From NCBI GenBank assembly GCA_031425215.1, contig JANPIW010000852.1, positions 1 through 28,955 of the forward strand: a stretch of 28,955 nucleotides of DNA, read 5' to 3'. The DNA comes from Verrucomicrobiaceae bacterium (GTDB taxonomy: Bacteria; Verrucomicrobiota; Verrucomicrobiia; Verrucomicrobiales; Verrucomicrobiaceae). The position numbers were made by a program, and so were the translations under genes. Below the pieces are notes generated by a model. The model saw only the letters and a program-made list of their open reading frames with translations. It ran no database searches and was not told where the DNA came from. This document shows, piece after piece, positions 1,205 through 21,570 of this stretch (its first letter is position 1; each line of letters starts with the position of its first letter).

Positions 1205-3514
1205 CTACAGCTTCATCGGGTGATCCTCGCCGATGACCTTCACTTCCAGCTCAAGCTGGATGCCGCGCTCGCGGAGGGCGGCCTCTTTGATGTCGTCGAT
1301 GAGATCGAGCACCTCGCGCGCGGTGGCGTGGCCGGCGTTGACGATGAAGTTTCCATGCACGTCGGACACGATGGCTTTGCCCACGCCGGTGCCTTTGAGC
1401 TTCAGCTCATCGACGAGTTTCCCGGCCTGCGCGGGCAGCGGGTTTTTGAAAACGCATCCCGCGCTTGCGCCGATGGGCTGTGACTCTCGGCGCTTCGCAT
1501 GTGAGGCGGCGAGCTTGGCGTCGATCTCATCGAGCGGCGCGGGTTTGCCTTCGAGCACAGCGGAGACGACAAAGCGCTCCTCGAACTCGGGCACGCTGCG
1601 GTAGTTCGCGGTGATCTCGGCTGCGGTCTTTTCTTTGATGGTGCCGTCGCTGTCGATGAAGCGCACGCTCACGATCTGGTCGAAGGTCTGCGTGCCCATC
1701 GCGCCGGCGTTCATGCGGATCGCGCCGCCGAGATTTCCCGGGATGCCTTCCATCCACTCGAACCCGCCGATGCCCGCCGCGCGCGCGGAGCTGGCGACCT
1801 TTTTCAAGCGCGCGCCGACGCCGACGGTGAGGCGGTTGCCATTGGCCGTGACGTTCTCCAGCTCGCCCTTCGACGGGTGGATCACCGCGCCACGGATGCC
1901 GCCGTCTTTGACGAGAAGATTCGAGCCGCGCCCGATCACGCGGATGGGCACCGCAGCGCCGCGCAAGTAACGCACGATCTCTGCAAAGCCGCCCTCGGTG
2001 CGAGGCTCCACCCAATACTGCGCCGGGCCGCCGATGCGAAAGGTGGTGTGCAACGCCATCGGCTCATACAAGCGCGCCACGCCGCCGCCGTGGTGATCGA
2101 GGATGGCACAGAGCTGCTCGATCACTTTCAAATCACGCGCGATGCACGCGCCGACCTCGTGGACATTGCCCGCGCCGAGAGTGATGAGCAGATCGCCAGG
2201 CCGGATCGCATTGCCGACGATGTCGCGCGCGACGGGCATCGTGGGTGTGGAGTGACATGGGATTTTGGTGCGTGCGCGCACTTCATTCAGAATGGTCTCA
2301 CCGCTCACGCCGGGCAGCGGTTTCTCGCTCGCAGGATAGATGTCGGTGACGAACAGCTCGTCCACGTCATCGAAGGCCTCGCCGAACTCCTTCTTCAAAA
2401 GCTGTGTGCGCGAGAAGCGATGCGGCTGGAAGAGGCAGAGGATGCGCTTCGGATTCAGCCCCTTCGCCGTGGCCAGCGTGGCTTTCACCTCGCTGGGATG
2501 ATGGCCGTAGTCATCGATGACGGTGAAGCGCTCTCCCGAATGCCTGATCTCAAAACGCCGCCGCGCGCCGCGGAAACTTTGCAGCGCGTGTTTGATCAAA
2601 TCAAAGCTCACACCGAGCCGCATCGCGAGCGCGATGGCGGCGAGCGCGTTGGAGACATTGTGCTTGCCCGGAATGCCCAGTGTGGCCTCACCGAGTTTCT
2701 CTCCACCAGCGAAGACCTCGAAGTCCGTTTGAGCGGGCCGCATCGCGGTGATGTTCGCGGAGAAATCCATGCTGCGATCCCAGCCATAGCTCACGGAGTT
2801 CGGCTGCCCGGCGCACACCTCGCGCGCCACGGGATCCTCGGCGCAGTAAATCCAATGGCCGCTCGTCTGGCTGAGCAGTTGGCGGAACACCACTTTGATC
2901 GCCTCGATGTCGGCGTAAAAATCCAGGTGCTCCGGCTCGATGTTCAAGATGATCGAGTGACGCGGGTGGAAATTCACGAGCGTGCCGTCGCTCTCATCGC
3001 CCTCCGCGACGAACAGCTCCCCTTCCCTGTCCCAATGCGCGTTCGTCCCTAGGATCGGAATCTCAGCGCCGACGTAATGCGATGGTTTCAGCCCGCCTTG
3101 TCTCAAAACATGCGCCGTCAGCGCCGAGGTCGTGGTTTTGCCGTGCGTGCCCGCCACGATGACCCCCTGCTTGCACGCCATCACCGCGGCCAGTGCCTCC
3201 GCGCGACGCACCAGCGGGATGCCTTCTTTGAATGCGGCCTCATACGCCACATTGCCCGGCTTGATCGCCGAGGAGTAAATGACCATGTCGCAATCCTCCA
3301 CCTCGCGCTCGCAGTGCGGTGAGAAAAACTTCAGCCCCATTTTCTCCAGCCGCTCCGTCTCCAGCGTCGTCACCTTGTCAGAGCCGCGCACCGCGTGCCC
3401 GAGGCCGATGAGCAGAGAAGCCAGCCCGCTCATGCCCGAGCCAGCGACACCGATGAGATCGATGGTCATCGGATGACGGTTTTCTTTCAAGATGCTGAGG
3501 ACGGGATGGATCAT
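1205..3514 (-). CDS. murC-murB: Bifunctional MurC-MurB fusion: UDP-N-acetylmuramate--L-alanine ligase plus UDP-N-acetylenolpyruvoylglucosamine reductase.
   Basis: The N-terminus carries the Mur-ligase signature IGVAGSGMSGLA...GTHGKTTTSA. The C-terminal ~300 aa is MurB-like (FAD-binding RIGGPAQYWV...RVIGRGSNLL...AGCVFKNP). The ORF track starts at a TTG at 3565. ATG options are 3514 (MIHPV...) and 3469 (MTIDLIG...); the latter matches canonical MurC N-termini. Confidence 0.85.
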   Translation of the reverse strand: MIHPVLSILKENRHPMTIDLIGVAGSGMSGLASLLIGLGHAVRGSDKVTTLETERLEKMGLKFFSPHCEREVEDCDMVIYSSAIKPGNVAYEAAFKEGIPLVRRAEALAAVMACKQGVIVAGTHGKTTTSALTAHVLRQGGLKPSHYVGAEIPILGTNAHWDREGELFVAEGDESDGTLVNFHPRHSIILNIEPEHLDFYADIEAIKVVFRQLLSQTSGHWIYCAEDPVAREVCAGQPNSVSYGWDRSMDFSANITAMRPAQTDFEVFAGGEKLGEATLGIPGKHNVSNALAAIALAMRLGVSFDLIKHALQSFRGARRRFEIRHSGERFTVIDDYGHHPSEVKATLATAKGLNPKRILCLFQPHRFSRTQLLKKEFGEAFDDVDELFVTDIYPASEKPLPGVSGETILNEVRARTKIPCHSTPTMPVARDIVGNAIRPGDLLITLGAGNVHEVGACIARDLKVIEQLCAILDHHGGGVARLYEPMALHTTFRIGGPAQYWVEPRTEGGFAEIVRYLRGAAVPIRVIGRGSNLLVKDGGIRGAVIHPSKGELENVTANGNRLTVGVGARLKKVASSARAAGIGGFEWMEGIPGNLGGAIRMNAGAMGTQTFDQIVSVRFIDSDGTIKEKTAAEITANYRSVPEFEERFVVSAVLEGKPAPLDEIDAKLAASHAKRRESQPIGASAGCVFKNPLPAQAGKLVDELKLKGTGVGKAIVSDVHGNFIVNAGHATAREVLDLIDDIKEAALRERGIQLELEVKVIGEDHPMKL

Positions 3515-3578
3515 GGCGGCGGATGAAATGAGCGCGGAGCGTAGCTGTGGAAGCGACGGCGGCAACTTGCGAGCGTCG

Positions 3579-4225: not shown

Positions 4226-5497
4226 TTACTGGCGCTGCTTCTCCGCGAGTTCCTCGATGGCAGCCGCGATTTGATCGGCGGAATCGCGCACGGCCAGTTT
4301 CATCGCGGCGGTTCTCATTTCCTTGGTGACGCTCTCGTTCATCATGATTTCGCGCACGGCATCGACGAGGTTCGTGGCATTGATCTCGGACTCGGGCAGC
4401 AATCTCGCGGCACCTGCGTCGGCGAATATCTCCGCGTTCTTTGTTTGATGATCGTCAGCGGCAAACGGATACGGCACGAGCAAACTCGGCAGACCAAACC
4501 ATGCGAACTCCGTGAGCGTGGACGCGCCGGCGCGCGCGATGGCGAGATCGGTGGCCTGATACGCCAGCTCCATGCGGTGGCAGAACGCGGCGACATGTTG
4601 CGGCAACAGCGGGTGCTTCGCGTAGGAGTCACGCACTTCGACATAGTCGGACGGACCGGCGATGTGGAGCACCTGGATGCCGAGGCGCTCGAATTGATCC
4701 AGAGCCATGCACACCACGCGGTTCACTCCACGCGCGCCCTGGCTGCCACCCATGATGAGCAGCGTTTTCTTCGCGGGATCGAGTTTGAAAAACGCGTGCG
4801 CATCCTCGCGCGCCTGCTGCCTCATGCCGCCGCGGATCGGTGTGCCGACGAATCGCACATCGTTGTGCTTTGGAAAATGCGCGCGGCATGAGTCGAGACC
4901 CACCAGCACCACGTCACTCCAGCGCGCGGTGAGCCGGTTGGCTTTTCCTGGCACGGCGTTCGAGTCGTGGATGAGCGTGGCACGCTTCTCCTGCCGTCCC
5001 GCGAGCACGGGCGCGAGCGATGTGAATCCGCCCATGCCGAGCACGACATCGATCTTCCGATCACGGATCATCGCGCGGCATTGACGCAGCCCTTTCCAGG
5101 TGCCGGACAAAAAGGAGATCATTTTCGGCGACCAGGGTTTCGGCATGGCGAGGAATGGCATGCGCTCGAATTTCATCGACGCATGACCCGACGCTGCGAG
5201 CGCGTCGATTTTCTTCTCACTGATCAGCAGGGTGACATCATGCCCGCGCTGGATGAGCGTCTCTCCGACTGCGATTCCGGGAAACAAGTGTCCGCCGGTG
5301 CCACCACACGCGATGAGAACGCGGAGACGCGAAGGCGGCGCCACCCGCCTGGTTGCGCCCGGAGCTTCAGACAAGCCGGCGGCTTGATCCACCCTCAAAC
5401 CCGGCAACTCATCCGCCACGTCATCGACTCCGCGCCTGACAGCCGGTCTCGTCGCACCATTGCCTCCACCGCCGCCTCTGTTTTTCTTCTTCGCCAC
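4226..5497 (-). CDS. murG: MurG, the undecaprenyl-PP-MurNAc-pentapeptide GlcNAc transferase, with a basic Gly/Arg/Lys-rich N-terminal extension of ~55 aa.
   Basis: RVLIACGGTGGHLFPGIAVGE is the canonical MurG N-terminal motif, but here it begins at residue ~57. The start is a GTG at 5497 with GAGG 4 nt upstream. There is no internal ATG before the G-loop. Confidence 0.85.
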   Translation of the reverse strand: MAKKKNRGGGGGNGATRPAVRRGVDDVADELPGLRVDQAAGLSEAPGATRRVAPPSRLRVLIACGGTGGHLFPGIAVGETLIQRGHDVTLLISEKKIDALAASGHASMKFERMPFLAMPKPWSPKMISFLSGTWKGLRQCRAMIRDRKIDVVLGMGGFTSLAPVLAGRQEKRATLIHDSNAVPGKANRLTARWSDVVLVGLDSCRAHFPKHNDVRFVGTPIRGGMRQQAREDAHAFFKLDPAKKTLLIMGGSQGARGVNRVVCMALDQFERLGIQVLHIAGPSDYVEVRDSYAKHPLLPQHVAAFCHRMELAYQATDLAIARAGASTLTEFAWFGLPSLLVPYPFAADDHQTKNAEIFADAGAARLLPESEINATNLVDAVREIMMNESVTKEMRTAAMKLAVRDSADQIAAAIEELAEKQRQ

Positions 5498-5503
5498 GAC
5501 GCC

Positions 5504-5637
5504 TCAGTTATGCGGAGTGTAGGAATGCGCAGTGCGGATCACAGGCAGTTGGCCCCATACGAGGTGGGTTTCCTGGTGACGGATGTGATACGACAAATCA
5601 ATAGCAATCATGGTGGATCAGAGCCGACACCGTAGCT
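5504..5637 (-). repeat. Decayed direct duplicate of the last ~135 bp of ftsW, including a relic stop 6 nt before the murG start.
   Basis: The minus-sense strand of the spacer reads agctacggtgtcggctctg...tggggccaactgcctgtgatccgcactgcg...ataactga. The ftsW 3' end reads agctacgtcggctccagc...tgggatcagctaccggtgatccgcaggaaa...cagatctga. By eye about two-thirds are identical. It encodes a 35-codon remnant ORF (5504-5611) ending ...QLPVIRTAHSYTPHN. Confidence 0.45.
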
Positions 5638-5682
5638 CACCCTCCGCGAAGGCAAGTTGATGTTTGACTCCAAATTCACCAA

Positions 5683-6825
5683 TCAGATCTGCGGTGTGAA
5701 GCGGTGTTTCCTGCGGATCACCGGTAGCTGATCCCAGGAGACGTGGACGCCCTGGCGGTGGATGTTGAGCAGGATGCCGATGATGATCATGGCGGCGACG
5801 AGGCTGGAGCCGACGTAGCTCACGAAGGGCAGAGGCAGGCCTTTGTTGGGCAGCAAGGATGTGGTGACGCCCATGTTGAGCAGGGCCTCCATGCTGAGCA
5901 GCAGCGTGAGGCCAAAGCCGAGGAGCTTGCCGAAGCGATCAGGCGCGCACGACGAGATGCTCATGCCGGCGATAAGGATGAAGACAAACATGAGCACGGT
6001 GCCGATGACGGCGTAAAGGCCGAGCTCCTCTCCGACGACGGGGAAGATGAAATCGGTGTGCGCCTCGGGGAGGTAATCGAGCTTCATGCGTCCATCACCA
6101 AGACCGAGACCTCTGATGCCGCCGCTGCCGAAGGCGAGCTGGGCGACCCATTGCTGGAGGCCGTAGGTGTCTTTGTATTTCTCGAGGTCATACACGGAGA
6201 TGATGCGGGCCATGCGATTCGGGTAATAGTGAATCGCCCCGGCGAGTGCGCTGCCGGCGGCGAGCACGCTGATCAATAGATAATGCCAGCGTGTGCCGGC
6301 GACGAACATGATCGACAGACCGACGGCGGCCGCGAGCGATGCATTGCCGAGGTCTGGCTCCATGCCGATGGGCAGCACGACGACGGCGAGGATGAGGCCC
6401 GGCAAAATGAAGCCGCGCGTGAAGGTGGATGTCGTGGCTTCATTGCGCGCGAACCACGCGGCAAGCGCGATGACGACGGCGATCTTGGCAAACTCCGAAG
6501 GCTGGACGCGCAGTCCGCCCACGCCGAGCCAGCGCGTGGCGCCGTTGATCGTGAAACCCACCCCAGGCACGAGCACGAGTGCGAGGAGAAACCCCGCGAC
6601 ACCGAGAACGTGCCAGCGCCAGCGCTGGAAGCGGCTGTAATCAAACATGGCAAAGAACGCGCAACCCAACGCGCCGATGCCGAGGTATTTGATCTGCTTC
6701 CAGAGCGTGAAGTATTCCTCGCCTCTTCCTTCCTCAATGAAGTACGTCGTGCTGGCCAGCATGACCAAACCCAAGGTCACGAGGAGGCAGACGGCCAGGA
6801 TGAGGAGGAGGAAGGTGGCTTTCAT
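5683..6825 (-). CDS. ftsW: FtsW, the SEDS-family peptidoglycan polymerase/lipid II flippase.
   Basis: 380 aa, ~10 TM, and typical SEDS blocks (FVVLPIGMEPDLG, GLQQW). ATG at 6825. Confidence 0.85.
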   Translation of the reverse strand: MKATFLLLILAVCLLVTLGLVMLASTTYFIEEGRGEEYFTLWKQIKYLGIGALGCAFFAMFDYSRFQRWRWHVLGVAGFLLALVLVPGVGFTINGATRWLGVGGLRVQPSEFAKIAVVIALAAWFARNEATTSTFTRGFILPGLILAVVVLPIGMEPDLGNASLAAAVGLSIMFVAGTRWHYLLISVLAAGSALAGAIHYYPNRMARIISVYDLEKYKDTYGLQQWVAQLAFGSGGIRGLGLGDGRMKLDYLPEAHTDFIFPVVGEELGLYAVIGTVLMFVFILIAGMSISSCAPDRFGKLLGFGLTLLLSMEALLNMGVTTSLLPNKGLPLPFVSYVGSSLVAAMIIIGILLNIHRQGVHVSWDQLPVIRRKHRFTPQI

Positions 6826-6870
6826 GAGAGAGGCGTAGAGGAGTAGAGCGTTAGAGCCTTAGGTCTAAGT

Positions 6871-6893
6871 GCGAAGTGCTCAGTGCACTTCGC
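6871..6893. repeat. Hairpin in the LysM-gene/ftsW spacer.
   Basis: gcgaagtgc-tcagt-gcacttcgc. No flanking U-tract. Confidence 0.4.
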
Positions 6894-6921
6894 GCTATGA
6901 TCTTTTCTCTCCGCATGTCGC

Positions 6922-7932
6922 TCACTGCTTCGCGGGGATCACCAGCTTCATGCCGTCGCGCATCTTCGCGGGGTCTTTGATCTTGTTGGCTTTGATGAGG
7001 GCATCAATGGAGACGCCGTATTTGGATGCGAGGCGATAGAGCGTCTCACCCTTGGCGAGGACGTGACTTGTGGCGGGCGCAGCGGTTTTGGCGGAAGGCT
7101 TGGCAGCAACTGGCGCGGTGGGTTTGACGATGGGGCGCTTGGCCATCTCGCTGGGTTTGGGGACGGGGTTTGGCGGCGGTGCGATGGATCTGGCCTTGGG
7201 TGTCACGGGCGCGGGCGGCGGTGCGGATTCGATGACCGGCTCGACGGGCGCGGGAGGTTCGGTGGCGGCTACGACGGTTTCATCGAGGCTGTCGATCTTG
7301 GCGAGCATGGGCGCGGGTGGTTCGTCGAGCGGCACGGTGCTGTTGTTCTCCTCGGGCAAAGTGAGGCTCATCGCTGCGGGTGGGACGTTGACGCTGGTGG
7401 TCTCGGCCACTGGCTCAGTGCGAGGTTCGAGCGTGGTGGGCGTGACGGTGGCGGCGGCGGGGAGGCTCTGCGCGATGACGACATCGAGCGGCGCGTCCGC
7501 GATTTTCTCGGGCACGCGGAGGACGGTGCCGGTGGAGATTTGCACGTCATCGCTGCCGAGCTGGTTGAGCGCGACGAAGGCGTCTTTGTCCACGCCGAGG
7601 TGCGCGACGATGCGCGGGACCGAGTCGCCAGATTGCACGGTGTACTTCTGCTCTGTCGAGGGAGCAGCAGCAGCGTTTGCAAGCATCGCTTTTGCTGCTG
7701 GCGCGACGCGGACTTCTTCCTCGCCGCTCTTCGTGAAAAAGTCGTGAAACACAATGCCGCCGACAACGAAGACGTGCAGCACGAGCATGACGACGAAGGT
7801 TCGCGCGACGCCGCTGTTGGGTTCATGCGCGTTCCATTCACCTTCACTCGTGATAGTGGCGGCGACGTGATGGCGGTGCTTCTGGCTGTCGAGGATGTTC
7901 AACAGGAGTTTGGGCTTGGGTTTGGTTTTCAT
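6922..7932 (-). CDS. Bitopic membrane protein with two LysM domains and a long Pro/Ala/Thr/Glu-rich linker, lodged between murD and ftsW.
   Basis: The ORF track runs 6922..8151, but the 5' part overlaps murD in another frame. The first ATG after the murD stop is at 7932 (MKTKPKPK...). A TM segment is ARTFVVMLVLHVFVVGGIVF. LysM-1 is YTVQSGDSVPRIVAHLGV...VLRVP. LysM-2 is the C-terminal HVLAKGETLYRLASKYGVSIDALIKANKI...LVIP. Confidence 0.6.
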   Translation of the reverse strand: MKTKPKPKLLLNILDSQKHRHHVAATITSEGEWNAHEPNSGVARTFVVMLVLHVFVVGGIVFHDFFTKSGEEEVRVAPAAKAMLANAAAAPSTEQKYTVQSGDSVPRIVAHLGVDKDAFVALNQLGSDDVQISTGTVLRVPEKIADAPLDVVIAQSLPAAATVTPTTLEPRTEPVAETTSVNVPPAAMSLTLPEENNSTVPLDEPPAPMLAKIDSLDETVVAATEPPAPVEPVIESAPPPAPVTPKARSIAPPPNPVPKPSEMAKRPIVKPTAPVAAKPSAKTAAPATSHVLAKGETLYRLASKYGVSIDALIKANKIKDPAKMRDGMKLVIPAKQ

Positions 7933-7972
7933 GGGGGCTTTGGGTTTGCGTGGGTTTTTGCGGGACTGTGAA

Positions 7973-9304
7973 TCAGGAAAGTGCGAGCACGGCGTCGCGG
8001 AAGGCATCGCCGCGCTGGGCGTAGCCGGTGTACATGTCGAAGGACGAAGTGCCGGGTGAGAGGATGATGGCATCGCCCGCGCGGGAGAATTCCGTGGCGG
8101 CGCGCACGGCGTCGGCCATGTCGGTGGCGCGGCGGCAGGGGATGAGATCACTGAATTGTTTTTCCAGCGCGGGCGCGATCTCGCCGATGAGCGCCATGGC
8201 GTGGACGCGGCCTGCGATCGTCTCGCGCAACGGTGTGTAATCGAGGCCTTTTTCTTTTCCGCCTGCGATCAAGACGATGGGGCGGTCTTGCGAGCGGATG
8301 CAGCTTTCGAGCGCGTGGAGGTTGGTGGCTTTGCTGTCATTGATGTACTCGCGGTCATTGAAAACACGCACCAGCTCGCAGCGATGGCGCGGCGCCTCGT
8401 AGCTGGCGAGCGTGTCCATCATGTTGGCAAAGTCGAGGCCGAGCAGCCAGCCTGCGGCGACGGCGGCGAGGATGTTCTCCATGTTGTGGCGGCCACGGAG
8501 TTTCACTTTGGATGCGTCGCCGAATTCTATGTCGCGATGCTGGAACTTGCCTGCGGCATAAACAAAATCGGCATCGCTTGTCTCGGATGAAAAGGTCACG
8601 CGACGTGCGGCGATGTCGCCGATGTTTTCTCCAGCGCGGACGATGGCCCAGTCGTCGGCGGTTTGGTTTTCGAAGATGCGGAGCTTGGCTTTGTAGTAGG
8701 ATTCGAGATCGGGATAACGGTCGAGATGATCGGGGGCGAAGTTGAGCCAGATGCTGACCTTGGGACGGAAGGTGTCGATGGTTTCGAGCTGGAAGGAGCT
8801 GACCTCGCAGGAAAGCGTGTCGAACTTTTCGCCCTCGACGATGACCTCGCTCAGCGCTTTGCCGTGATTGCCGCACGGAATGGAAGGACGGCCCGCGCCA
8901 TTGAAGAGCGCGGCGATCAGCTCGGTGCAGGTGCTCTTGCCGTTCGTGCCGGTGATGCCGATGAGCGGTGTGGTGCAAAGAGTGAAACCGAATTCCATCT
9001 CGCCCGTCAGCGGAACTCCGGCGTCGGTGAATTTCTTTGGCAGCGGCCAGTTCGCGTCGAGGCCAGGGCTGATAATGACGAGGTGGAAATCGCCGGGTGC
9101 TACAATTAGCTCTGTGGCGTCTTGGCCGATGACGGTGGGGAATCCTGCTGCGCGTACTTTGGAGACTGCTGCGGCGAGTTTTGTCGGATCGCCCTCGTCG
9201 ATGACGGTCGCGCGTGCGCCGTGCTGCGCGGCGAGGCGCGCGGCGGCGAGACCGCTGCGTCCCGCGCCGAGTATGGCAAAGTGTTGTCCGTCAAAACGAC
9301 CCAT
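7973..9304 (-). CDS. murD: MurD, UDP-N-acetylmuramoylalanine--D-glutamate ligase.
   Basis: Rossmann-type N-terminus FAILGAGRSGLAAARL and Mur ligase motif GTNGKSTCT. The ORF-track start at 9373 is a TTG. The internal ATG at 9304 (MGRFDGQHF...) lies 11 nt after the mraY stop. Confidence 0.85.
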   Translation of the reverse strand: MGRFDGQHFAILGAGRSGLAAARLAAQHGARATVIDEGDPTKLAAAVSKVRAAGFPTVIGQDATELIVAPGDFHLVIISPGLDANWPLPKKFTDAGVPLTGEMEFGFTLCTTPLIGITGTNGKSTCTELIAALFNGAGRPSIPCGNHGKALSEVIVEGEKFDTLSCEVSSFQLETIDTFRPKVSIWLNFAPDHLDRYPDLESYYKAKLRIFENQTADDWAIVRAGENIGDIAARRVTFSSETSDADFVYAAGKFQHRDIEFGDASKVKLRGRHNMENILAAVAAGWLLGLDFANMMDTLASYEAPRHRCELVRVFNDREYINDSKATNLHALESCIRSQDRPIVLIAGGKEKGLDYTPLRETIAGRVHAMALIGEIAPALEKQFSDLIPCRRATDMADAVRAATEFSRAGDAIILSPGTSSFDMYTGYAQRGDAFRDAVLALS

Positions 9305-9315
9305 GTTTTTCTGCG

Positions 9316-10449
9316 TCAGCGAAGTTTGAGCGTGGCGAGCCCGAGCATCGCGAAGATGAGCGAGGCGATCCAAAAGCGTGTGATGACCTGGTTCTCGTGC
9401 CAGCCGCCGAGTTCAAAGTGATGATGGATCGGCGACATGCGGAACACGCGTTTGCCGCGCGTCTTGAAGCTGATCACCTGAATGATGACGCTCATGGCCT
9501 CGCACACGAACACGCCGCCGACGAGGGCGAGGACGATTTCTTGCTTGCAGCCGATGGCGAGGGTGGCGATGCAGCCGCCGAGCGCGAGGCTGCCGGTGTC
9601 ACCCATGAACATTTTTGCCGGATGCGCATTCCACCAGAGGAAGCCGAGGCAGGAGCCAGCGAGCGCCATGGCGACGACGGGCAGTTCGGATGCGAGCGAG
9701 TGATGCGGGATGACGAGGTATTCGGAATACACGGCATTGCTGCAAAGATAGCCGAACGCGGCATACGCGAGCGCGGTGGTGAGAGAGCAACCGGTGGCGA
9801 GTCCGTCAAGGCCGTCGGTGAGGTTCACCGCGTTTGACGCGCCGACGATAATGAGTGCGAAGATCACGACCGCGAATGGCCCCATGTCCCCGATGAGCGC
9901 TTCTTTGAGAAACGGCACATGCAGCGCGCGGAGGTGTCCGTCATTGAGATCCCCAGGGATGCCGTAGGCGAAGAACATTCCGGCGGCGAAGGCGACGCCA
10001 AACTGCCACACGAGCTTGAAGCGCGCGCTGACGCCTTTGGAGTTCTTCTTGCTGATCTTCAAATAGTCATCCCAGAAACCGAGGGCGCCGAGGCCGATGG
10101 TGGTGAGCAGCACGGCCCAGACCACGGGGTTGCTCCATTTCATCCAGAGCAGCGACGAGATGACGACGGAGCCGAGAATGAGGATGCCGCCCATCGTGGG
10201 TGTGCCGGCTTTTTTGCCGTGCAGTTCGAAAAGTTTGTTCACCTCCGCGGCACTGCGGATGGGCTGGCCGATCTTGAGCGAGATGAGTTTGCGGATGAGC
10301 GGCTCGCCATACATGATGGAGAGCATGAATGCGGTGACGACCGCGCCACCCGCGCGAAAAGTGTGGTAGCGGAAGACGTTGAGCAGCTTGTAAATGAAGC
10401 CGTCGGGAGAGGAGAACAGGTCTCGATGTTCGAAGAGCCAGTAGATCAT
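9316..10449 (-). CDS. mraY: MraY, phospho-N-acetylmuramoyl-pentapeptide transferase.
   Basis: MIYWLFEHRDLF...FRAGGAVVTAF... and NAVNLTDGLDGLA are present. The long Arg-rich upstream part of the 536-aa ORF is an artefact. The start at 10449 overlaps the murF stop (ATGA). Confidence 0.9.
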   Translation of the reverse strand: MIYWLFEHRDLFSSPDGFIYKLLNVFRYHTFRAGGAVVTAFMLSIMYGEPLIRKLISLKIGQPIRSAAEVNKLFELHGKKAGTPTMGGILILGSVVISSLLWMKWSNPVVWAVLLTTIGLGALGFWDDYLKISKKNSKGVSARFKLVWQFGVAFAAGMFFAYGIPGDLNDGHLRALHVPFLKEALIGDMGPFAVVIFALIIVGASNAVNLTDGLDGLATGCSLTTALAYAAFGYLCSNAVYSEYLVIPHHSLASELPVVAMALAGSCLGFLWWNAHPAKMFMGDTGSLALGGCIATLAIGCKQEIVLALVGGVFVCEAMSVIIQVISFKTRGKRVFRMSPIHHHFELGGWHENQVITRFWIASLIFAMLGLATLKLR

Positions 10450-11813
10450 GATGCGCGGAAATGAGTGAGAACTTTCTCCATGCCAGCGGAGCGGCTGCCT
10501 TTGAGAAGGACGGTGTCGCCAGGTGCGAGGAAGGCGCGGAGGTGCGCGGCGCAGTCGGAGTGGGAAGCAAAATGCTGCGTGGTGAGCGATGAGGACGCGG
10601 CGGTGGAAATGAGCGAGGATTCGTTGTCGCCGACGGTGAAGAGGGCGTTGAGGTGGGTGCGCGCGGCGAATTCTCCGAGGGCGCGGTGCTCGGGTTCGGC
10701 GTGGATGCCGAGTTCGCCCATGCGACCGAGGACGGCGACGCGGCGGCCGTTGGTGTTGATGCTCGAGAGTGTTTGCAGGCCGGCGCGCATGGAGTCGGGG
10801 TTGGCGTTGTAGCTGTCGTCGAGGAAGGTGATGCCGTTGATGGTTTTGGTTTCGAGACGGCCGCCAGTAAGCGTGACGTTGCGCAGCGCGTCGCCGATGA
10901 CTTCGGGTGCGATGCCGTGTTTCCATCCGGTGGCTGCGGCGAGCGCAGCGTTGCCGACCATGTGCTGGCCGGGGATGGGGAGAAAAGTGGCGACGCGCTC
11001 GCCGCCAAAGTCGAGCGTGAAGGATGTGCCATCAGCGCGCTGATCGAGATCGAGCGCGGCGATGTCGCCAGTGCCGATGCCTGCGGTGATGACGTTGGCT
11101 TTGCAGCGTGCGGCGATGGAGGCGGTGAAGTCATCGTTTGCATTGAGCACGACGGTACCGCTGGCGGGGACGGCTTCGGCGAGCGTGCCCTTCTCGATGG
11201 CGATGGCTTCGCGCGTGCCCATGTACTCGATGTGCGCGACGCCGACGTTGGTGATGATGGCGGCGTCAGGCGCGGCGATGTCAGCGAGGATTTTGATTTC
11301 GCCTGGATGGTTCATGCCCATCTCGAGGACGGCGCAATTGTTGCCTTCCGAAAGGCAGAGGATGGTGAGCGGTAGTCCGATGTGGTTGTTGAGATTGCCG
11401 AGCGTGGCGCACACGCTGAAGGCGCGCGACATGACGGCTTTGGTGAAATCCTTGGTGGAGGTCTTGCCGTTGCTGCCGGTGATGCCGATGACGCGTGGTG
11501 CGTGATGGAGGCGGTAGTGGTGGGCGAGGCGCTGGAGCGCCAGGAGGGTGTCGGGGACTTCGATGATGGTGCAGGGGAGCGCTGTTGTAGCGCTGTCAGC
11601 TTTGCTGACGATGATCGCGGCTGCGCCTGCTTGCGCGACTTGGGGGAGGAAGTTGTGCGCGTTGAATTTGTCGCCGACGAGCGCGATGAAAACGTCACCC
11701 TGTTTGATGGCGCGGGAGTCGGTGCTGACGCTCGTGACCATGCGCGTGGCGTCACCGGAGCGGATGATACCGCCGGCGAGGTCTGCGATGATGGTGAGCG
11801 GAATCGATTTCAT
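10446..11813 (-). CDS. murF: MurF, UDP-MurNAc-tripeptide--D-Ala-D-Ala ligase.
   Basis: GITGSNGKTSTK motif and MurF-like N-terminus. The ATG at 11813 overlaps the murE stop (ATGA). Confidence 0.85.
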   Translation of the reverse strand: MKSIPLTIIADLAGGIIRSGDATRMVTSVSTDSRAIKQGDVFIALVGDKFNAHNFLPQVAQAGAAAIIVSKADSATTALPCTIIEVPDTLLALQRLAHHYRLHHAPRVIGITGSNGKTSTKDFTKAVMSRAFSVCATLGNLNNHIGLPLTILCLSEGNNCAVLEMGMNHPGEIKILADIAAPDAAIITNVGVAHIEYMGTREAIAIEKGTLAEAVPASGTVVLNANDDFTASIAARCKANVITAGIGTGDIAALDLDQRADGTSFTLDFGGERVATFLPIPGQHMVGNAALAAATGWKHGIAPEVIGDALRNVTLTGGRLETKTINGITFLDDSYNANPDSMRAGLQTLSSINTNGRRVAVLGRMGELGIHAEPEHRALGEFAARTHLNALFTVGDNESSLISTAASSSLTTQHFASHSDCAAHLRAFLAPGDTVLLKGSRSAGMEKVLTHFRAS

Positions 11814-13300
11814 TCCTGGTAGTCTTCGTCGCGGGTGGATTTGAGCTGGCTGATGATGTTCTTCGCGATGCGGCGATCATCGAAGGGGGTGCGCTTGCCG
11901 TGGACTTCCTGGTAGGTCTCGTGGCCCTTCCCTGCGATGAGGACGATGTCGCCGTCGCGGGCGAGTTCGAGGGCGGCGCGGATGGCGGTTTTTCGGTCGG
12001 GGATTTCTCCGTGGCCGGCGCGGGTGAAGCCTTTTTTCGCATCGGCGATGATGGACTGCGGGTCTTCGGTGCGCGGGTTGTCGGAGGTGAGGACGCAGAG
12101 GTCGCTGCCTTCCTCGGCGGCGCGCGCCATGAGGGGGCGCTTGAGTTTGTCACGATCTCCACCGCAGCCGAACACGGTGATGATGCGGGAGGGCTTGAGC
12201 GCGCGGAGAGTGCGGAGCACGCTCATTATTGCGTCGGGCGTGTGGGCGTAGTCGACAAAAACCTGGCAGCGCTCTTTGTCAGTGATGCGTTCGAGGCGGC
12301 CGGGGACTTGCGGCGCGGCTTTGAGATGATTGATGCTCTCGCGGAGGTTGAGGCCCATGGCGTGAGCGGCGGCGATGACGGCGAGAGAGTTGGCGACATT
12401 GAAGTCGCCGATGAGCGGGATGCGCACGAGGAAGGAGCGGCCGCGCGCGTCGAGTTCGAATGTGGTGCCGCTCATGTCATAGCGGACGTTCGATGCGCGG
12501 AAGTCGAGGCCGTAGCCCTGGCCGTAGGTGCTGACGCGTTTGGTGTGTTCGAATTGTTTGATGAGCTTCCGGCCCCATGCGTCATCCGCGTTGATGATCA
12601 TCTGGCCTTTGCCGGCATCGGCGACGTTTTGAAACAGCAGTGTCTTGGCGGCGAAGTAGTCGTCCATCGTGCCGTGGTAATCGAGATGATCCTGCGTGAG
12701 GTTTGTGAAAATGGCGGCGGCGAACGGGATGCCGTGGGTGCGCTGCTGGTGGAGCGCATGGGAGGATGTCTCGATGGCGACGGCGCGGCAGCCGTTGGTT
12801 TGCATCGTGGCGAAGAGCGACATCAGCTCGAGCGACTCGGGCGTGGTGTGCGTGGCGGGGACTTGCTCACCGCCAAGGTCGTAAAACATGGTGCCGATCA
12901 ATCCGGCCTGCACTTGCGCGGCGTTGAGCAGGTAGTGAAGGAGAAAGGCGATGGTGCTTTTTCCATTCGTGCCGGTGATGGCGGCGATGCTAAGCGCGCG
13001 CTCGGGATGCGCGTAAAACGTGGCGGCGATCTGGGCGAGGGCGACGCGGGAATTTTTGACATGCACCCAGGGCACGGTGGCATCAGCGGGTGGGGCGCTT
13101 TCGGCGATGATGGCGGACGCGCCTGCTTTCAATGCGGTGGGGATGAATTCATTCGCGTCGAGCTTTGAGCCGCGAATGGCGACGAAGGCGGTGCCGGGGG
13201 CGACCATGCGGGAGTCGTACGCAATGGCGGTAATCTCGGTGTCGAGGCTGCCGGATGCGACGGGCTTGTCGAGATCGGTGATGAGATCGCGCAGGGTCAT
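11810..13300 (-). CDS. murE: MurE, UDP-MurNAc-L-Ala-D-Glu--2,6-diaminopimelate ligase.
   Basis: GTNGKSTIAF, and the DNPR motif (TSDNPRTEDP) typical of meso-DAP-adding MurE. The ATG at 13300 overlaps the ftsI stop. Confidence 0.85.
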   Translation of the reverse strand: MTLRDLITDLDKPVASGSLDTEITAIAYDSRMVAPGTAFVAIRGSKLDANEFIPTALKAGASAIIAESAPPADATVPWVHVKNSRVALAQIAATFYAHPERALSIAAITGTNGKSTIAFLLHYLLNAAQVQAGLIGTMFYDLGGEQVPATHTTPESLELMSLFATMQTNGCRAVAIETSSHALHQQRTHGIPFAAAIFTNLTQDHLDYHGTMDDYFAAKTLLFQNVADAGKGQMIINADDAWGRKLIKQFEHTKRVSTYGQGYGLDFRASNVRYDMSGTTFELDARGRSFLVRIPLIGDFNVANSLAVIAAAHAMGLNLRESINHLKAAPQVPGRLERITDKERCQVFVDYAHTPDAIMSVLRTLRALKPSRIITVFGCGGDRDKLKRPLMARAAEEGSDLCVLTSDNPRTEDPQSIIADAKKGFTRAGHGEIPDRKTAIRAALELARDGDIVLIAGKGHETYQEVHGKRTPFDDRRIAKNIISQLKSTRDEDYQE

Positions 13301-15168
13301 TGGGCGTCACCTCCCGGTGCATCCACGCGGACGACGAAGGAGCGCTCCGAGTGAACGGAGAGCTGATCGAGCGCTGCGCGCACGACCTCGGAGAAAATGG
13401 GCGCGGCGACGGTGCCGCCGAAGATGTCCTCGGTGCCAGCTTTCGGATCATCGACGACGACGACGCAGGCGATGCGCGGGTCCTCGGCCGGCGCGAAGCC
13501 TGCGAATGATGCGATGTAGTGGCCGTCTTGATAACCTTTCGTGGCCTCGTCGTAGCGCCAGGCGGTGCCTGTTTTACCGGCGACGGTGATGCCTTCGATG
13601 GCGGCTTTTTTTCCGGTGGTCTCGGTGACGACTTTGCAGAGCATCTTGTTGATCTGCGCGATGGTGCGCGCTTTGCAGATCTGATGCTGCGGCATGGAGG
13701 GTGTGACGCGGATGTTTTCTCCATCGGCGGAGACGACGCGGTCGATGAGTCGGGGCTTCATGAGCACGCCGCCATTGGCAAAGGCGCCGATGACCATGGC
13801 GAGCTGCAACGGTGTGACGCTGACCTCGTAGCCCATGGCCATGCGCGACATGGTTGTGCCGGACCAGTTGTCAAATTTCACGAGGCCGGTGCCTTCGCCT
13901 TTGAGACCAATGCCGGTTTTTTGTCCGAAACCGAAGCGCCAGATGTAGGCGAGGAAGTCGTCCTGGCCTACGGTGCGCGCGACTTTGTAGGCGCCGATGT
14001 TGCTGGAGTGGACGAGGATGGTTTCGACGCTTCCATTCGCGAGCGGGTGGTGATCGGTGAGTTTGATTTTTTGCGCCGGCTCCTCGTAGTAGCCGTTGTT
14101 GAGCGCGAATGAGGTGTCGGGCGCGACTTTGCCGAGATCGAGCGCGGCGGCGAGGGTGACGAGCTTGAAGGTGGAGCCTGGCTCGTACGGATCGGAGATG
14201 GCGAGGTTGCGGAGCATTCCGCTTTTGCTGTCGCGCTCGTAGTGCGGGCGGCTGGCCATGGCAAGGATGGAGCCGGTGCGCGGGTCGGTGATGATGATGG
14301 TGAGTTTTTTCGGCGACCAGATCGCGCACTGCTGCTCGATGACCTGCTCGACATAATCCTGGAGGCTCATGTCGATGGTGAGGTAGGTGTCGCTGCCGTG
14401 TTTTGGCTCGATGACTTTGCCGCGGTAGAGGGGCAGCTCGCGGCCTTTGTTGTCGCGCTCGATCCATTGCTCGCCGTCGGTGCCGTCGAGGTCGGTGTCC
14501 ATCATGGCCTCGACGCCCCATGCGCCGCCGTGGGAGAAATTCATGTCGCCGAGCACATGCGTGAGGCGCTCTTTTGCCGGGTAGGCGCGCTGGAATGTGG
14601 GGCGAAGATAGACGCCGGTGATGTGGCGCTCGGCGAGAAGCTTGCGCCAGGTCGCGGCTTCTTCGTCGGTGAAGATGCCTGGGAAAACGGTGACGGGTTT
14701 TTTTGACGCGAGCATCATGCGCGCAGTGTCGAGCGGCATCTGGAGATCGGGCGCGATCGTGGTGGCGACGTGCTCGCGGTAGGCGGCGTTGATCTGCTCA
14801 TCAGACATTTCTTTGCGCAGATCAGCGACGGTGGTGCCGCGGATGGTAGCGAGCTTGCGGCGCACGAGATGTTTTTCATCGAGGTGGACGCGGTCGATGT
14901 ACAACTCGTGGACGGTCTCGTCGTGGGCGAGCAGCTCGCCGTCGCGATCACGGATGGAGCCGCGATGCGCAGGGAGCGGCTGATGGAGCTGTCTCATGCG
15001 CGCGGCCAGCTCGGAAAACTCGGCGTGCTGGCGGACGTGAAGAAAGTACAGGCGCGCGGTGACGGCGGTGAAGCCGAGCACGAGCACGCTGGTGACGACG
15101 CACATGCGCGCGCGGACATGGCGGTCGCGTTTGATGATGTCGAGATTGGGTTTGAGCGGAGGATTCAC
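13297..15168 (-). CDS. ftsI: Class B penicillin-binding protein (FtsI/PBP3-type transpeptidase).
   Basis: N-terminal TM, a PBP dimerisation region, and transpeptidase motifs (STFK, SSN, KTGTA). The start is a GTG at 15168 in GTGA overlap with ftsL; an internal ATG is the alternative (MCVVTSV...). Confidence 0.8.
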   Translation of the reverse strand: MNPPLKPNLDIIKRDRHVRARMCVVTSVLVLGFTAVTARLYFLHVRQHAEFSELAARMRQLHQPLPAHRGSIRDRDGELLAHDETVHELYIDRVHLDEKHLVRRKLATIRGTTVADLRKEMSDEQINAAYREHVATTIAPDLQMPLDTARMMLASKKPVTVFPGIFTDEEAATWRKLLAERHITGVYLRPTFQRAYPAKERLTHVLGDMNFSHGGAWGVEAMMDTDLDGTDGEQWIERDNKGRELPLYRGKVIEPKHGSDTYLTIDMSLQDYVEQVIEQQCAIWSPKKLTIIITDPRTGSILAMASRPHYERDSKSGMLRNLAISDPYEPGSTFKLVTLAAALDLGKVAPDTSFALNNGYYEEPAQKIKLTDHHPLANGSVETILVHSSNIGAYKVARTVGQDDFLAYIWRFGFGQKTGIGLKGEGTGLVKFDNWSGTTMSRMAMGYEVSVTPLQLAMVIGAFANGGVLMKPRLIDRVVSADGENIRVTPSMPQHQICKARTIAQINKMLCKVVTETTGKKAAIEGITVAGKTGTAWRYDEATKGYQDGHYIASFAGFAPAEDPRIACVVVVDDPKAGTEDIFGGTVAAPIFSEVVRAALDQLSVHSERSFVVRVDAPGGDAQ

Positions 15169-15515
15169 GGCGAGGTGCGGGCCACGTCTGCTGTCGCGGG
15201 CGGCGGGATGGGCGGCAGGTAGATGAGCCTGTCTTTGGTGATGGGACGAAGGAGGGTGCGCGCATTGGCGAGACGTGGCTGCACTTTGTCGCGCGTGAGG
15301 AGGCTCTCGATGCGGAGGTCGAGTGCGGAGATTTCTTGATTGAGCAGTTTCACTTCTTTTTCGAGCTCGCGCTGCTGGTCGGAGAGCGCGTGGGCGAAGT
15401 TTTGATGATGCACCATGCCGAGGGCGATGCTGATGAGCACGGCGGTGACGATCACGAGCGCGATGACCGTGGGCAGGCGGATGCCGTTGCGATAGCGGTG
15501 GCGGTTGCGGCTCAT
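15165..15515 (-). CDS. ftsL: FtsL-like bitopic cell-division protein.
   Basis: 116 aa with a basic N-terminus, one TM (LPTVIALVIVTAVLISIALGMV) and a coiled-coil (QQRELEKEVKLLNQEISALDLRIESL). It sits between rsmH and ftsI. The ATG at 15515 overlaps the rsmH stop. Confidence 0.55.
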   Translation of the reverse strand: MSRNRHRYRNGIRLPTVIALVIVTAVLISIALGMVHHQNFAHALSDQQRELEKEVKLLNQEISALDLRIESLLTRDKVQPRLANARTLLRPITKDRLIYLPPIPPPATADVARTSP

Positions 15516-16453
15516 GGCAGTTTCTCTGCGGCGCGCAGTCGGGCGCTGCGCGAGCGCGGGTTGCGGTTGGATTCCTCGGGCGATGGCTCCTGCGGTTTGC
15601 GCGTGATGAGCCTCATGCAGTAGTCAGGATTCGGCCGCGGCTCAGGCCACTCGGGGCGGTCATTCATCTGCTTGCTCACATGATGAAACGCCTGCTTCAC
15701 GATGCGGTCTTCGAGGCTGTGAAATGAAATGGCGAGCAGCACGCCGCCGGGTTTCAACCAGCGCGGCGCGGCTTCGAGAAACTGCTGCAGCGCCGCCAGC
15801 TCATCATTCACCGCGATGCGCAGCGCCTGAAACGTGAGCGTCGCGGGATGACGGCGGCCTTTGCCGCGACCGATGGCACCAACGATCACGGCGACGAGAT
15901 CGAAGGTGGTGAGGATTGGGTTCTTATCACGCGCACGAACGATGGCGCGGGCGATGCGGCGGGCTTGCGGCTCTTCGCCGTATTCGCGCAGGATGCGCTC
16001 GATCTCGTCGGCATCCTCCATGTTCACGATGTCAGCGGCGGAGCGCGCGGCGCGTCCATCCATGCGGAGATCGAGCGGACCGTCGTGCTGAAACGAAAAT
16101 CCGCGCGCAGGCTCGTCGAGCTGATGACTCGATACACCGAGATCGACGATCATGCCGTCGAAGCCCGTCACGCCCGTCTCAGCGAGGATCTCGGGAAAGT
16201 GGCGGAAATTTCCATGCAACGCGCAGAAGCGATCACCGAAAGCGCTCAGCCGTTTCGAAGCGTGACGGATCGCATTCGCATCCTGATCCATCGACACCAC
16301 ACGCGCGCCCTCTTGCAGCAGCGCTTCGGAGTGCCCGCCCCCGCCGAGCGTCCCATCAAAAAACAAACGGCCAGGCGCGGGCCGGAAATATTTCACGACC
16401 TCGGCAAGCATCACGGAGTCGTGATAAAAATCGAGCTTGCCGCGCAGGCTCAT
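15512..16453 (-). CDS. rsmH: RsmH (MraW), 16S rRNA m4C1402 methyltransferase.
   Basis: HDSVMLAEVVKYFRPAPGRLFFDGTLGGGGHSEALL. The ORF track extends to 16756, but the upstream 100 codons are low-complexity G/D-rich with atypical A/T-ending codons, so the start is taken at ATG 16453. Confidence 0.8.
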   Translation of the reverse strand: MSLRGKLDFYHDSVMLAEVVKYFRPAPGRLFFDGTLGGGGHSEALLQEGARVVSMDQDANAIRHASKRLSAFGDRFCALHGNFRHFPEILAETGVTGFDGMIVDLGVSSHQLDEPARGFSFQHDGPLDLRMDGRAARSAADIVNMEDADEIERILREYGEEPQARRIARAIVRARDKNPILTTFDLVAVIVGAIGRGKGRRHPATLTFQALRIAVNDELAALQQFLEAAPRWLKPGGVLLAISFHSLEDRIVKQAFHHVSKQMNDRPEWPEPRPNPDYCMRLITRKPQEPSPEESNRNPRSRSARLRAAEKLP

Positions 16454-20737: not shown

Positions 20738-20929
20738 ATGAGCACGGCAGCCATTGAACGTGAGTTGAAGAAAGTGCGCAGACGCTTGAAGACCCTGGAG
20801 GAACTCTTTGGTCAAAAACCCAAAGCCTCCTGTCGGGATGCATTTGGCGCGATGAAAGGCGACTCTCTGCACCGCGAGGCTGCCGCGCTCGGCGCGGCAT
20901 GGCGCGCAAAAGAGAACAAGCGTAAGTGA
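20738..20929 (+). CDS. Small VapB-like antitoxin candidate, partner of the downstream PIN gene remnant.
   Basis: 63 aa (MSTAAIERELKKVRRRLKTLEELF...). GGAGG lies directly upstream of ATG 20738. The stop is 4 nt before the PIN-gene ATG, with a GAGG between them. Confidence 0.4.
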   Translation: MSTAAIERELKKVRRRLKTLEELFGQKPKASCRDAFGAMKGDSLHREAAALGAAWRAKENKRK

Positions 20930-20933
20930 GGTC

Positions 20934-21250: not shown

Positions 21251-21570
21251 TGATCCCAGCCAGACCTCTCTTTCTTCCGCGCCCATTACCACTGGCACCA
21301 CACGCCTTCGGATCAAAACCTCAAGTCAAAGGCGGGACGCCTCGATCCATCGACAGGCGGGGACGCCTGTCCTCCGCTCCATCACAGCCCTTCGCTCTCA
21401 GCCGGGTGAACAATACGGTGCTGCTGCTGATAGGCACGGTGAAGACATGGCCTGGCAGCAGAAAGGGGATAGAGTGCTGGCAGCGACATGACGAGCTGGC
21501 AAGATCGAGACTGCGACCGTTAATTTTCCTATGTAACCTCCGTCATACCGTTTCCTCTTTGCAGGATGGC

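Follow-up and report, generated by a model that had tools for sequence, protein, structure and literature searches.

In chlamydiae, the protein annotated as 'NlpD' is septal, binds sacculi via its LysM domains, and localises only during peptidoglycan (PG) synthesis. The surrounding Chlamydia genes form a cluster for wall synthesis and division, in the order mraY (Ct757), the 'muramidase' CT_759, ftsW (Ct760), and murG (Ct761); CT758 we take to be murD. In Bacillus subtilis, YneA reaches midcell through a transmembrane (TM) helix that binds TM7 of FtsW, and its effect requires binding of its LysM domain to PG. The cytoplasmic tail of FtsN is an interaction motif that binds FtsA. FtsN is not recognisable outside Proteobacteria. 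In the literature, no paper's text connects LysM to the dcw cluster of Verrucomicrobiota; the sole trace is a figure legend that marks LysM genes near murB/C.

The gene described here, hereafter gene X, comes from a window of 28,955 nt, i.e. the whole stretch of DNA that was analysed (Verrucomicrobiaceae bacterium, assembly GCA_031425215.1, contig JANPIW010000852.1). A first-pass annotation had placed a bitopic, double-LysM protein inside the dcw operon between murD and ftsW, with spacers of 40 and 96 bp. Indeed, the flanking genes are matched by TIGR01087 (murD) and PF01098 (ftsW; E = 5.1e-87), and both spacers are exactly of those lengths (Table 1). The ftsW product also matches TIGR02614 (E = 7e-96) at 321 bits, just below the 337.5-bit cut-off. 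Gene X starts with ATG at 7930-7932 and stops with TGA at 6922-6924, and its product begins MKTKPKPK. A longer, GTG-initiated ORF that reaches 8151 and overlaps murD was dropped, as all homologues begin at the MK.K position. We retrieved 179 full-length homologues of the gene X product at 35-45% identity. Around gene X, the window contains no promoter-like site or canonical terminator (the murD-X spacer likewise holds no promoter-like site), and an Rfam scan of the window gave zero matches. The X-ftsW spacer holds a 9-bp perfect hairpin (6868-6896) whose sense strand has no U-tail, and the minimum free energy of this spacer is -28.6 kcal/mol, with a modest z of -1.9.

Table 1. Positions of gene X, the regions of its product, and its neighbours in the window.
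Feature	Residues (aa)	Positions (nt)	Strand	Basis
Gene X, 336-aa bitopic double-LysM protein	1-336	6922..7932	minus	ORF and translation, Pfam LysM, homologues
Predicted cytoplasmic tail	1-41	7810..7932	minus	conservation, alignment, charge
Transmembrane helix, ARTFVVMLVLHVFVVGGIVFHDFF	42-67	7732..7809	minus	hydrophobicity, AF2, conservation
LysM1, membrane-proximal	97-141	7510..7644	minus	Pfam, local HMM (97-142), AF2
Disordered Pro/Ala/Val/Thr/Glu-rich linker	142-289	7066..7509	minus	composition, pLDDT, conservation
Short conserved island in linker, PPPNPVPKPSEMAKR	252-266	7135..7179	minus	alignment A1
LysM2, C-terminal	290-334	6931..7065	minus	best Pfam stretch (291-333), local HMM, AF2
murD, upstream neighbour (true start possibly inside the listed ORF)		7973..9373	minus	TIGR01087, E = 1.3e-106
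ftsW, downstream neighbour, SEDS glycosyltransferase		5683..6825	minus	PF01098, TIGR02614
murD-X spacer, 40 nt		7933..7972	minus	murD stop to X start
X-ftsW spacer, 96 nt		6826..6921	minus	X stop to ftsW start

The bitopic, two-LysM architecture also held up in the Pfam search that had been proposed as its check: the PF01476 score of the gene X product lies above the gathering threshold (68.3 bits, where 20.9 are required; E = 5.3e-19) and comes from two stretches, which places the product in the LysM family. LysM1, which is also matched by LysM3_LYK4_5, takes a beta-alpha-alpha-beta fold in the AF2 model (pLDDT ~89) and is missing in some close relatives (P0020, P0118). LysM2 has the same predicted fold at pLDDT ~94 and a conservation of 0.81. 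The protein has a single hydrophobic segment (Kyte-Doolittle KD19 maximum of 2.31 at aa 45-63), which AF2 models as a helix over aa 42-67 with a pLDDT of 82-97. At 0.82, the conservation of this TM helix is the top value of all regions, and its G58-G59 pair is kept in close relatives (at least 90% in alignment A1). The tail had been described as a short basic stretch, MKTKPKPK. The basic start stands, but the tail is really ~41 aa long and carries a strongly conserved motif, LL.N(L).....rH.vA..T.EGeWN.HEPN.G, with a mean majority-residue fraction of 0.77 in A1; its AF2 pLDDT is ~60, and no fold is predicted for it alone. The tail counts 6 K+R vs. 4 D+E, and an acidic stretch follows the TM helix. 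By the positive-inside rule, this charge pattern suggests an N-in orientation, with the N terminus in the cytoplasm and the C terminus in the periplasm.

The linker is Pro/Ala-rich and disordered, as was first noted, though its length is 148 aa and not ~170 aa. It consists of 22% P, 18% A, 10% V, 10% T, and 8% E, and has an AF2 pLDDT below 50 and a conservation of 0.49. Within the family, between 42 and 289 aa separate the end of the TM helix from the point where the last LysM starts. The linker includes a short island in which, among close relatives, three prolines (P254, P256, P260) never vary and M263 is near-invariant (conservation of 0.69 over aa 252-268, vs. 0.49 for the whole linker); the island is not clearly kept in distant subfamilies. 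Pfam searches of the gene X product (E <= 0.01) returned no Peptidase_M23/LytM or SPOR match, and no recognisable catalytic domain was found anywhere in the 336 aa; the parts other than LysM consist of the TM helix, a short motif, and the disordered linker. The high conservation of the tail, TM helix, and LysM2 relative to that of the linker suggests a function beyond PG binding.

The tail and TM helix together (the N-module) correspond to no Pfam family (best E-values of 0.0013-0.3, to scattered TM families) and have no match among PDB sequences. Run against 1.84 billion proteins, a profile of the N-module alone yielded 128 cluster representatives, and the match nearly always falls within the first 16-38 residues of proteins of 250-400 aa. 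LysM is present in 100 of the 101 full-length representatives, 78 of which (78/101) have two, and 97 of the 100 LysM-bearing representatives end no more than 10 aa from their last LysM. This combination of N-module, LysM, and constant C-terminal end indicates that the whole architecture is under selection. Among 36 diverse sequences drawn from the representatives retrieved by the profile, His53 never varies, and conservation reaches at least 90% at W33, R44, F46, and L50. The conserved tail motif together with the TM helix is the true signature of the family. Four features define the family here: an N-terminal ..VT.E..W....PN..L.R.F, an invariant His in the TM helix, LysM at the C terminus, and a gene located right after murD. 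All four are found in gene X and its product, making it a member of this verrucomicrobial murD-ftsW LysM family. Few distant members were named in a cluster look-up, and all of the names were Verrucomicrobi-. A word-indexed search with the N-module only gave short fragments of at most 130 aa, which served for gene-context look-ups, and a profile of the nearest subfamilies returned uncultured members only. A deeply conserved cytoplasmic and transmembrane module, in a gene fixed beside ftsW, is newly described here.

Synteny, which the first-pass annotation had named as a further check, is conserved at close and long range. A scan of GTDB genomes with two strict patterns yielded 65 Verrucomicrobiaceae loci, V. 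spinosum not among them, and the order murD-X-ftsW is found in all 63 close loci that keep both flanks. Gene X also directly follows murD in 10 of 10 distant loci (GC 0.44-0.64). It is followed by ftsW in eight of these; one of the remaining loci (L072) ends at a contig edge, and in the other (L078), gene X is followed by murG, in a lineage where the cluster reads murD-X-murG and lacks both ftsW and ftsI. In five of the distant loci, the start of gene X and the stop of murD share an overlap of 4 nt, consistent with translational coupling. The double-LysM architecture, the dcw position, and the synteny make a division-site PG-binding role, as originally proposed, the best reading of the gene.

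More specifically, we consider it about an even call that X is a dcw-encoded accessory subunit of the septal PG-synthesis machinery in Verrucomicrobiota. X would be made together with the dcw gene products and reside in the inner membrane, N terminus in the cytoplasm and C terminus in the periplasm. From what is known of the LysM family, its two periplasmic LysM domains would bind the glycan backbone of PG. With LysM1 ~30 aa from the membrane and LysM2 at the tip of a flexible Pro/Ala-rich tether, both may hold X at the new wall. The TM helix, with its invariant His53 (and Gly-Gly in close relatives), and the ~25-aa cytoplasmic motif with its conserved Trp33 could dock X to a membrane partner. 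The likeliest partner would be the FtsW-FtsI synthase, which is encoded in the immediate neighbourhood, or else a cytoplasmic divisome or lipid-II-synthesis protein. Wall binding would thereby be coupled to the activity or positioning of the synthase, with an effect that is probably positive or scaffolding. The L078 arrangement, in which gene X persists in a cluster without ftsW or ftsI, weakens a strict link to FtsW. Position in the dcw operon is by itself no proof of function, and this also speaks against reading X as an accessory subunit, as does the lack of any predicted fold in the cytoplasmic motif. For the trigger of septal synthesis in bacteria without a recognisable FtsN, X is a testable candidate for the whole phylum.

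A bolder version of the accessory-subunit reading is that X is a subunit or activator of FtsW-FtsI, both obligate and essential, acting via the cytoplasmic motif and the His-bearing TM helix; that it is the functional replacement of FtsN in Verrucomicrobiota; and that it is the orthologue of chlamydial 'NlpD', such that the TM-LysM-LysM gene between murD and ftsW would be an ancestral divisome component of the Verrucomicrobiota and Chlamydiota branches of PVC. We find this combination doubtful, with perhaps a modest chance of being right.

Verrucomicrobium spinosum offers a genetic view of the same position. By locus-tag order, exactly one gene lies between ftsW and murD in this species (new tags: mraY RS19455, murD RS36300, RS19445, ftsW RS36295, and murG RS19435; old tags: murG ..19100 and murD ..19115). 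Tag order and synteny imply that this gene, VSP_RS19445 (old tag VspiD_010100019110), is the homologue of gene X. VSP_RS19445 was scored essential by TraDIS, with an insertion index of 0.016 vs. 0.0077 for ftsW and 0.010 for murD, and through this positional counterpart gene X is putatively essential. Mini-Tn5 insertions in VSP_RS19445 could be polar on the essential genes ftsW and murG; mraW, the first gene of the V. spinosum cluster, tolerated both insertions and deletion, so polarity in this cluster is not absolute. The V. spinosum TraDIS paper makes no mention of gene RS19445, LysM, or FtsN. Targeted genetics now exists in V. spinosum, where the same-position gene has this essential score.

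Several other explanations compete with a role beside the septal synthase. The GC content of 0.615 here gives rise to long ORFs on both strands, and gene X might in principle be a chance ORF in GC-rich DNA and no real gene; this is vanishingly improbable given the two significant LysM domains in its product, both folded by AF2 at high confidence, the hundreds of homologues that span the full length and whose ends are conserved, and the synteny kept among relatives. On the sequence data, the chance-ORF explanation is already refuted by homology and domain evidence. A second candidate role follows from what is reported for chlamydial 'NlpD', in which X would be a septal PG-remodelling factor that itself trims or cleaves stem peptides in the manner of a carboxypeptidase or endopeptidase, or recruits and activates hydrolases for daughter-cell separation, and would not act on the synthase. 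The two proteins have the same domain content (a membrane anchor and two LysM domains, LytM being absent), CT759 directly precedes ftsW (CT760) by ORF numbering, and chlamydial 'NlpD' is reported to act on lipid II as a DD-carboxypeptidase in vitro and to give endopeptidase-reporter activity in E. coli. However, no catalytic domain is recognisable in X, and its strongest selection besides LysM2 is on cytoplasmic and intramembrane parts that a periplasmic hydrolase would not need. We regard remodelling as rather unlikely.

The same cytoplasmic motif and polar TM residues bear on whether X is simply a general tether between inner membrane and PG, or an envelope spacer, acting round the whole cell, with its dcw position a frozen accident. 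LysM binds PG generically, and a long Pro/Ala-rich, TolA/TonB-like linker of widely varying length could span the periplasm, but a passive tether would need neither of those conserved features. The position of gene X after murD is, moreover, invariant over GC 0.44-0.65 and deep divergence, with stop/start overlaps in several lineages. We find the tether explanation quite unlikely. A brake on FtsW, similar to YneA or ChiZ, would share the minimal logic of YneA, namely TM docking on TM7 of FtsW plus LysM-PG binding, and would restrain septal synthesis until a checkpoint; the location of gene X immediately upstream of ftsW is compatible with this. Yet X shares its operon constitutively with genes essential for synthesis and is not SOS- or stress-induced; it is kept in every lineage examined, and it is far larger and has a second LysM as well as the conserved cytoplasmic motif. 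The essential score of the positional V. spinosum gene would also be unexpected for an inhibitor. We consider a brake very unlikely.

In its parts, X resembles several known proteins. YneA (B. subtilis) and ChiZ (M. tuberculosis), like X, combine a single TM helix with an extracytoplasmic LysM, but both of these are small inhibitors that are induced by damage and whose genes lie elsewhere than in dcw. X has 336 aa, two LysM, a long linker, and a cytoplasmic motif, is constitutive in its operon, and corresponds in position to a V. spinosum gene scored essential. We rejected membership of this type of small damage-controlled inhibitor based on its size, its dcw location without a promoter-like site, and an NCBIfam YneA score of 22.4 bits vs. 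a cut-off of 60. YneA, a known FtsW-binding TM-LysM protein, is itself an inhibitor and not an activator, an observation that runs against the accessory-subunit reading. DipM (Caulobacter) and NlpD (E. coli) share LysM with X, which in these proteins targets septal PG; however, those are soluble periplasmic proteins or lipoproteins, while X is bitopic and has a motif on the cytoplasmic side. Membership of the LytM factors (DipM/NlpD/EnvC) was likewise rejected: X has no M23 domain, and its NCBIfam DipM scores of 34.8 and 22.2 bits (cut-offs of 740 and 900) reflect LysM only.

The first-pass annotation had called X FtsN/DipM-like, which proved apt for the layout and proposed logic of FtsN, and not for a family relation to either protein. 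X follows the layout of FtsN (and DedD/DamX), in which a short tail in the cytoplasm leads through a single TM helix and an extended, flexible periplasmic linker (Pro/Gln-rich in FtsN) to a C-terminal PG-binding domain. Unlike FtsN, it has LysM in place of SPOR and would bind the glycan backbone and not specifically denuded glycans. It also has a second, membrane-proximal LysM and no recognisable E-domain, and its gene lies inside dcw while ftsN does not. Homology to FtsN was rejected on the lack of a SPOR domain and on an hhalign comparison of the N-module profile with E. coli FtsN residues 1-132, which gave a probability of 2% with only 17 TM columns aligned.

Among known proteins, the septal chlamydial 'NlpD' is probably the nearest counterpart of X, and not FtsN or DipM. 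This protein (C. trachomatis CT759, C. pneumoniae Cpn0902, and Waddlia NlpD-Wch) likewise combines an N-terminal membrane anchor with two LysM and has no LytM; its gene lies within dcw, immediately ahead of ftsW by ORF numbering; and it belongs to the sister phylum within the PVC superphylum. The two differ in that the chlamydial N terminus is drawn as a signal sequence (Waddlia) or a TM helix (C. pneumoniae), so that the chlamydial protein may lack a conserved cytoplasmic motif of 40 aa. Cpn0902 has its two LysM together at the C terminus without a long Pro-rich tether, and enzymatic activities are reported for the chlamydial protein, whereas X shows no catalytic domain. If the two proteins are orthologous, X would reinterpret the chlamydial protein and would be a division component common to PVC bacteria, whose division modes otherwise strikingly diverge.

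The gene between murD and ftsW, whose coordinates the first-pass annotation had right and whose strand is minus, encodes a protein with one hydrophobic segment. Pfam finds LysM alone in it (PF01476, two stretches, E=5.3e-19), with no LytM/M23 or SPOR match. An AlphaFold2 prediction with 23 homologues gives a TM helix, a membrane-proximal LysM1, and a C-terminal LysM2; the linker contains 22% P, 18% A, 10% V, 10% T, and 8% E. Because the N-terminal tail is basic, the stretch after the helix is acidic, and LysM must reach peptidoglycan (PG), we predict an N-in/C-out topology. NCBIfam matches to DipM, MltD, YneA, and ActS, among others, score far under their cut-offs, with LysM-only coverage.

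Features of the window (nt) and regions of the double-LysM protein (aa); conservation is the mean majority-residue fraction in an alignment of 23 homologues
Feature	Position	Strand	pLDDT (AlphaFold2)	Conservation	Remark
rsmH	15512-16756	-			414 aa; RsmH profile begins only at residue 110
FtsL-like small bitopic ORF	15165-15515	-			116 aa, one TM helix and coiled-coil-like stretch; 4-nt overlap with both rsmH and ftsI; no Pfam match; FtsL-like by position and shape
ftsI	13297-15168	-
murE	11810-13300	-
murF	10446-11813	-
mraY	between murF and murD	-
murD	7973-9373	-			upstream neighbor
double-LysM gene	6922..7932	-			336 aa, starts MKTKPKPK
hairpin	6868-6896
ftsW	5683-6825	-			downstream neighbor
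murG	4226-5497	-
murC-murB fusion	1205-3565	-			single 786-aa ORF; MurC aa 35-473, MurB aa 497-781
antisense ORF	7063-7971	+			302 aa, Gly/Arg/Ala-rich
antisense ORF	7070-7747	+			225 aa, Gly/Arg/Ala-rich
kinase ORF	20926-23496	+			856-aa Ser/Thr protein kinase, S24/S26 peptidase-like region at C-terminus
ORF	23493-24179	+			weak sigma-70 region-4 match; 4-nt overlap with kinase ORF
cytoplasmic tail	aa 1-41			0.77
TM helix	aa 42-67		82-90	0.82
LysM1	aa 95-141		about 89	0.64
unstructured segment	aa 142-289		below 50
linker (148 aa)				0.49
LysM2	aa 288-333		about 94	0.81

The gene lies in a co-directional dcw cluster, with spacers of 40 nt to murD and 96 nt to ftsW that match those first reported. 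Since no sigma-70-like promoter site occurs in 5400-9600 and the sole hairpin between the gene and ftsW lacks a U-tail on the sense strand, it is most simply read as an operon member. This hairpin pairs perfectly over 9 bp (GCGAAGUGC-ACUGA-GCACUUCGC on the sense strand), and the folding energy of the whole spacer is -28.6 kcal/mol (z = -1.9); a role in processing or stability between the two genes is conceivable. Elsewhere in the cluster, the MurB/C fusion is a known verrucomicrobial signature (PMC4803751); here it directly follows murG, unlike in V. spinosum. The rsmH ORF has either a Gly/Asp-rich N-terminal extension or a later true start, and the composition of the two ORFs antisense to the LysM gene is typical of GC-rich antisense frames.

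Using tblastn with the window MraY, MurD, FtsW, and MurG on 65 species-representative genome loci (those found by the N-terminal motif) and 4 contig look-up loci, we found the order mraY-murD-LysM gene-ftsW in 63/63 loci keeping both flanks. The gene also directly follows murD in all ten loci of distant subfamilies (GC 0.435 to 0.635, several from frameshifted long-read assemblies), and is followed by ftsW in eight, a contig edge in L072, and murG in L078. Both results go far beyond the synteny check in related genomes that the first-pass annotation had proposed. In contrast to the 40-nt spacer in the window, the gene start and the murD stop share 4 nt in five distant loci (local positions 6001 and 6004 in L070, L071, L072, and L073; 4826 and 4829 in L079), which suggests translational coupling in these relatives. 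Locus L078 (1-13591) reads rsmH-(small ORF)-murE-murF-mraY-murD-LysM gene-murG, with both ftsI and ftsW absent from the cluster.

Conservation in the protein is highest in the cytoplasmic tail, TM helix, and LysM2; the conservation of the first two, here called the N-module, had gone unremarked. His53 is invariant superfamily-wide, W33, R44, F46, and L50 are conserved at >=90%, and the most degenerate N-module is that of L078 (Trp to Phe, Gly-Gly to Ala-Ala). A linker island, PPPNPVPKPSEMAKR (aa 252-266), is conserved in close relatives only. The N-module matched no Pfam family or PDB sequence, and kinship to the FtsN N-terminus was rejected (hhalign probability 2%). When it is folded alone (36 diverse sequences), the TM helix reaches pLDDT 84-97, and residues 1-39 show no fold at a pLDDT of about 60, as is typical of a short linear interaction motif.

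An N-module-only profile (71 positions) run against 1.84 billion cluster representatives (E<=1e-3) retrieved 128 proteins, nearly all of them 250-400 aa long and carrying the module at their very N-terminal end. Most of the 101 full-length representatives (78) carry two LysM domains, whereas 22 carry a single one and 1 lacks LysM; 42 to 289 Ala/Pro-rich aa separate the TM helix from the last LysM, which ends <=10 residues from the C-terminus in 97/100. Some close relatives in our homologue alignment (P0020, P0118) lack LysM1 altogether but keep the N-module and LysM2, so LysM1 seems dispensable in some lineages. All organism-named members are Verrucomicrobiota, Verrucomicrobiales, Verrucomicrobiaceae, or Prosthecobacter.

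In the V. spinosum TraDIS study, mraY, murD, ftsW, and murG are VSP_RS19455, VSP_RS36300, VSP_RS36295, and VSP_RS19435; an older annotation has murG as ..19100 and murD as ..19115. Because both numbering schemes leave one slot, exactly one extra gene, VSP_RS19445, lies between ftsW and murD, and by gene position alone it would be homologous to the LysM gene. VSP_RS19445 was classed as essential (insertion index 0.016 vs. 0.0077 for ftsW and 0.010 for murD), and the LysM gene may likewise be essential. Mini-Tn5 insertions in VSP_RS19445 may be polar on ftsW and murG, although insertions in and deletion of mraW, the first gene of the cluster, were tolerated. The TraDIS data list no E. coli or P. 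limnophila ortholog of VSP_RS19445, and the paper does not discuss it. A 2016 figure of verrucomicrobial murB/C neighborhoods marks "LysM-containing protein coding genes" without comment.

Altogether, we very probably have here a membrane protein that binds PG and is associated with division. We consider it most likely, with moderate confidence, that it assists the septal PG synthase as a co-expressed accessory protein. In this reading, LysM would hold it to septal or newly made glycan, and the TM helix and the cytoplasmic motif, both conserved, would contact FtsW-FtsI or else a different partner from the divisome or from lipid II synthesis. YneA, a TM helix plus LysM, sets a precedent for the docking of a bitopic LysM protein on FtsW by its TM helix; it reaches midcell through TM binding to FtsW TM7, and its LysM-PG binding is required to act. 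A YneA-like brake is quite improbable here. A general IM-PG tether is unlikely, and there is next to no chance that an ORF with this domain content and synteny is spurious.

By its domains, the position of its gene, and its phylogenetic neighborhood, the chlamydial "NlpD" is the nearest match to our protein. Cpn0902 combines a TM helix with two LysM domains, lacks LytM, and is now considered misannotated. The Waddlia gene lies within a wall and division gene cluster, and no septal PG-binding protein was known from Chlamydiae before its product, which attaches to sacculi via LysM and localizes only while PG synthesis is under way. A role as a remodeling factor in the style of chlamydial NlpD is conceivable but doubtful for our protein. 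The number of CT_759 ("muramidase") directly precedes that of ftsW (Ct760) and follows that of mraY (Ct757). We take CT758 to be murD. DipM and E. coli NlpD have LysM alone in common with our protein, while FtsN is alike in layout and logic but not homologous, and its PG-binding domain is of another type. The earlier proposal of an FtsN/DipM-like divisome component was sound in its observations and partly so in its interpretation; membership in either family is rejected, and Chlamydiae offer a closer precedent. The protein probably belongs among the bitopic PG-binding division proteins; new to it is the cytoplasmic and TM module, which shows deep conservation and keeps its place between murD and ftsW throughout the verrucomicrobial lineages sampled, save L078, where murG is next.
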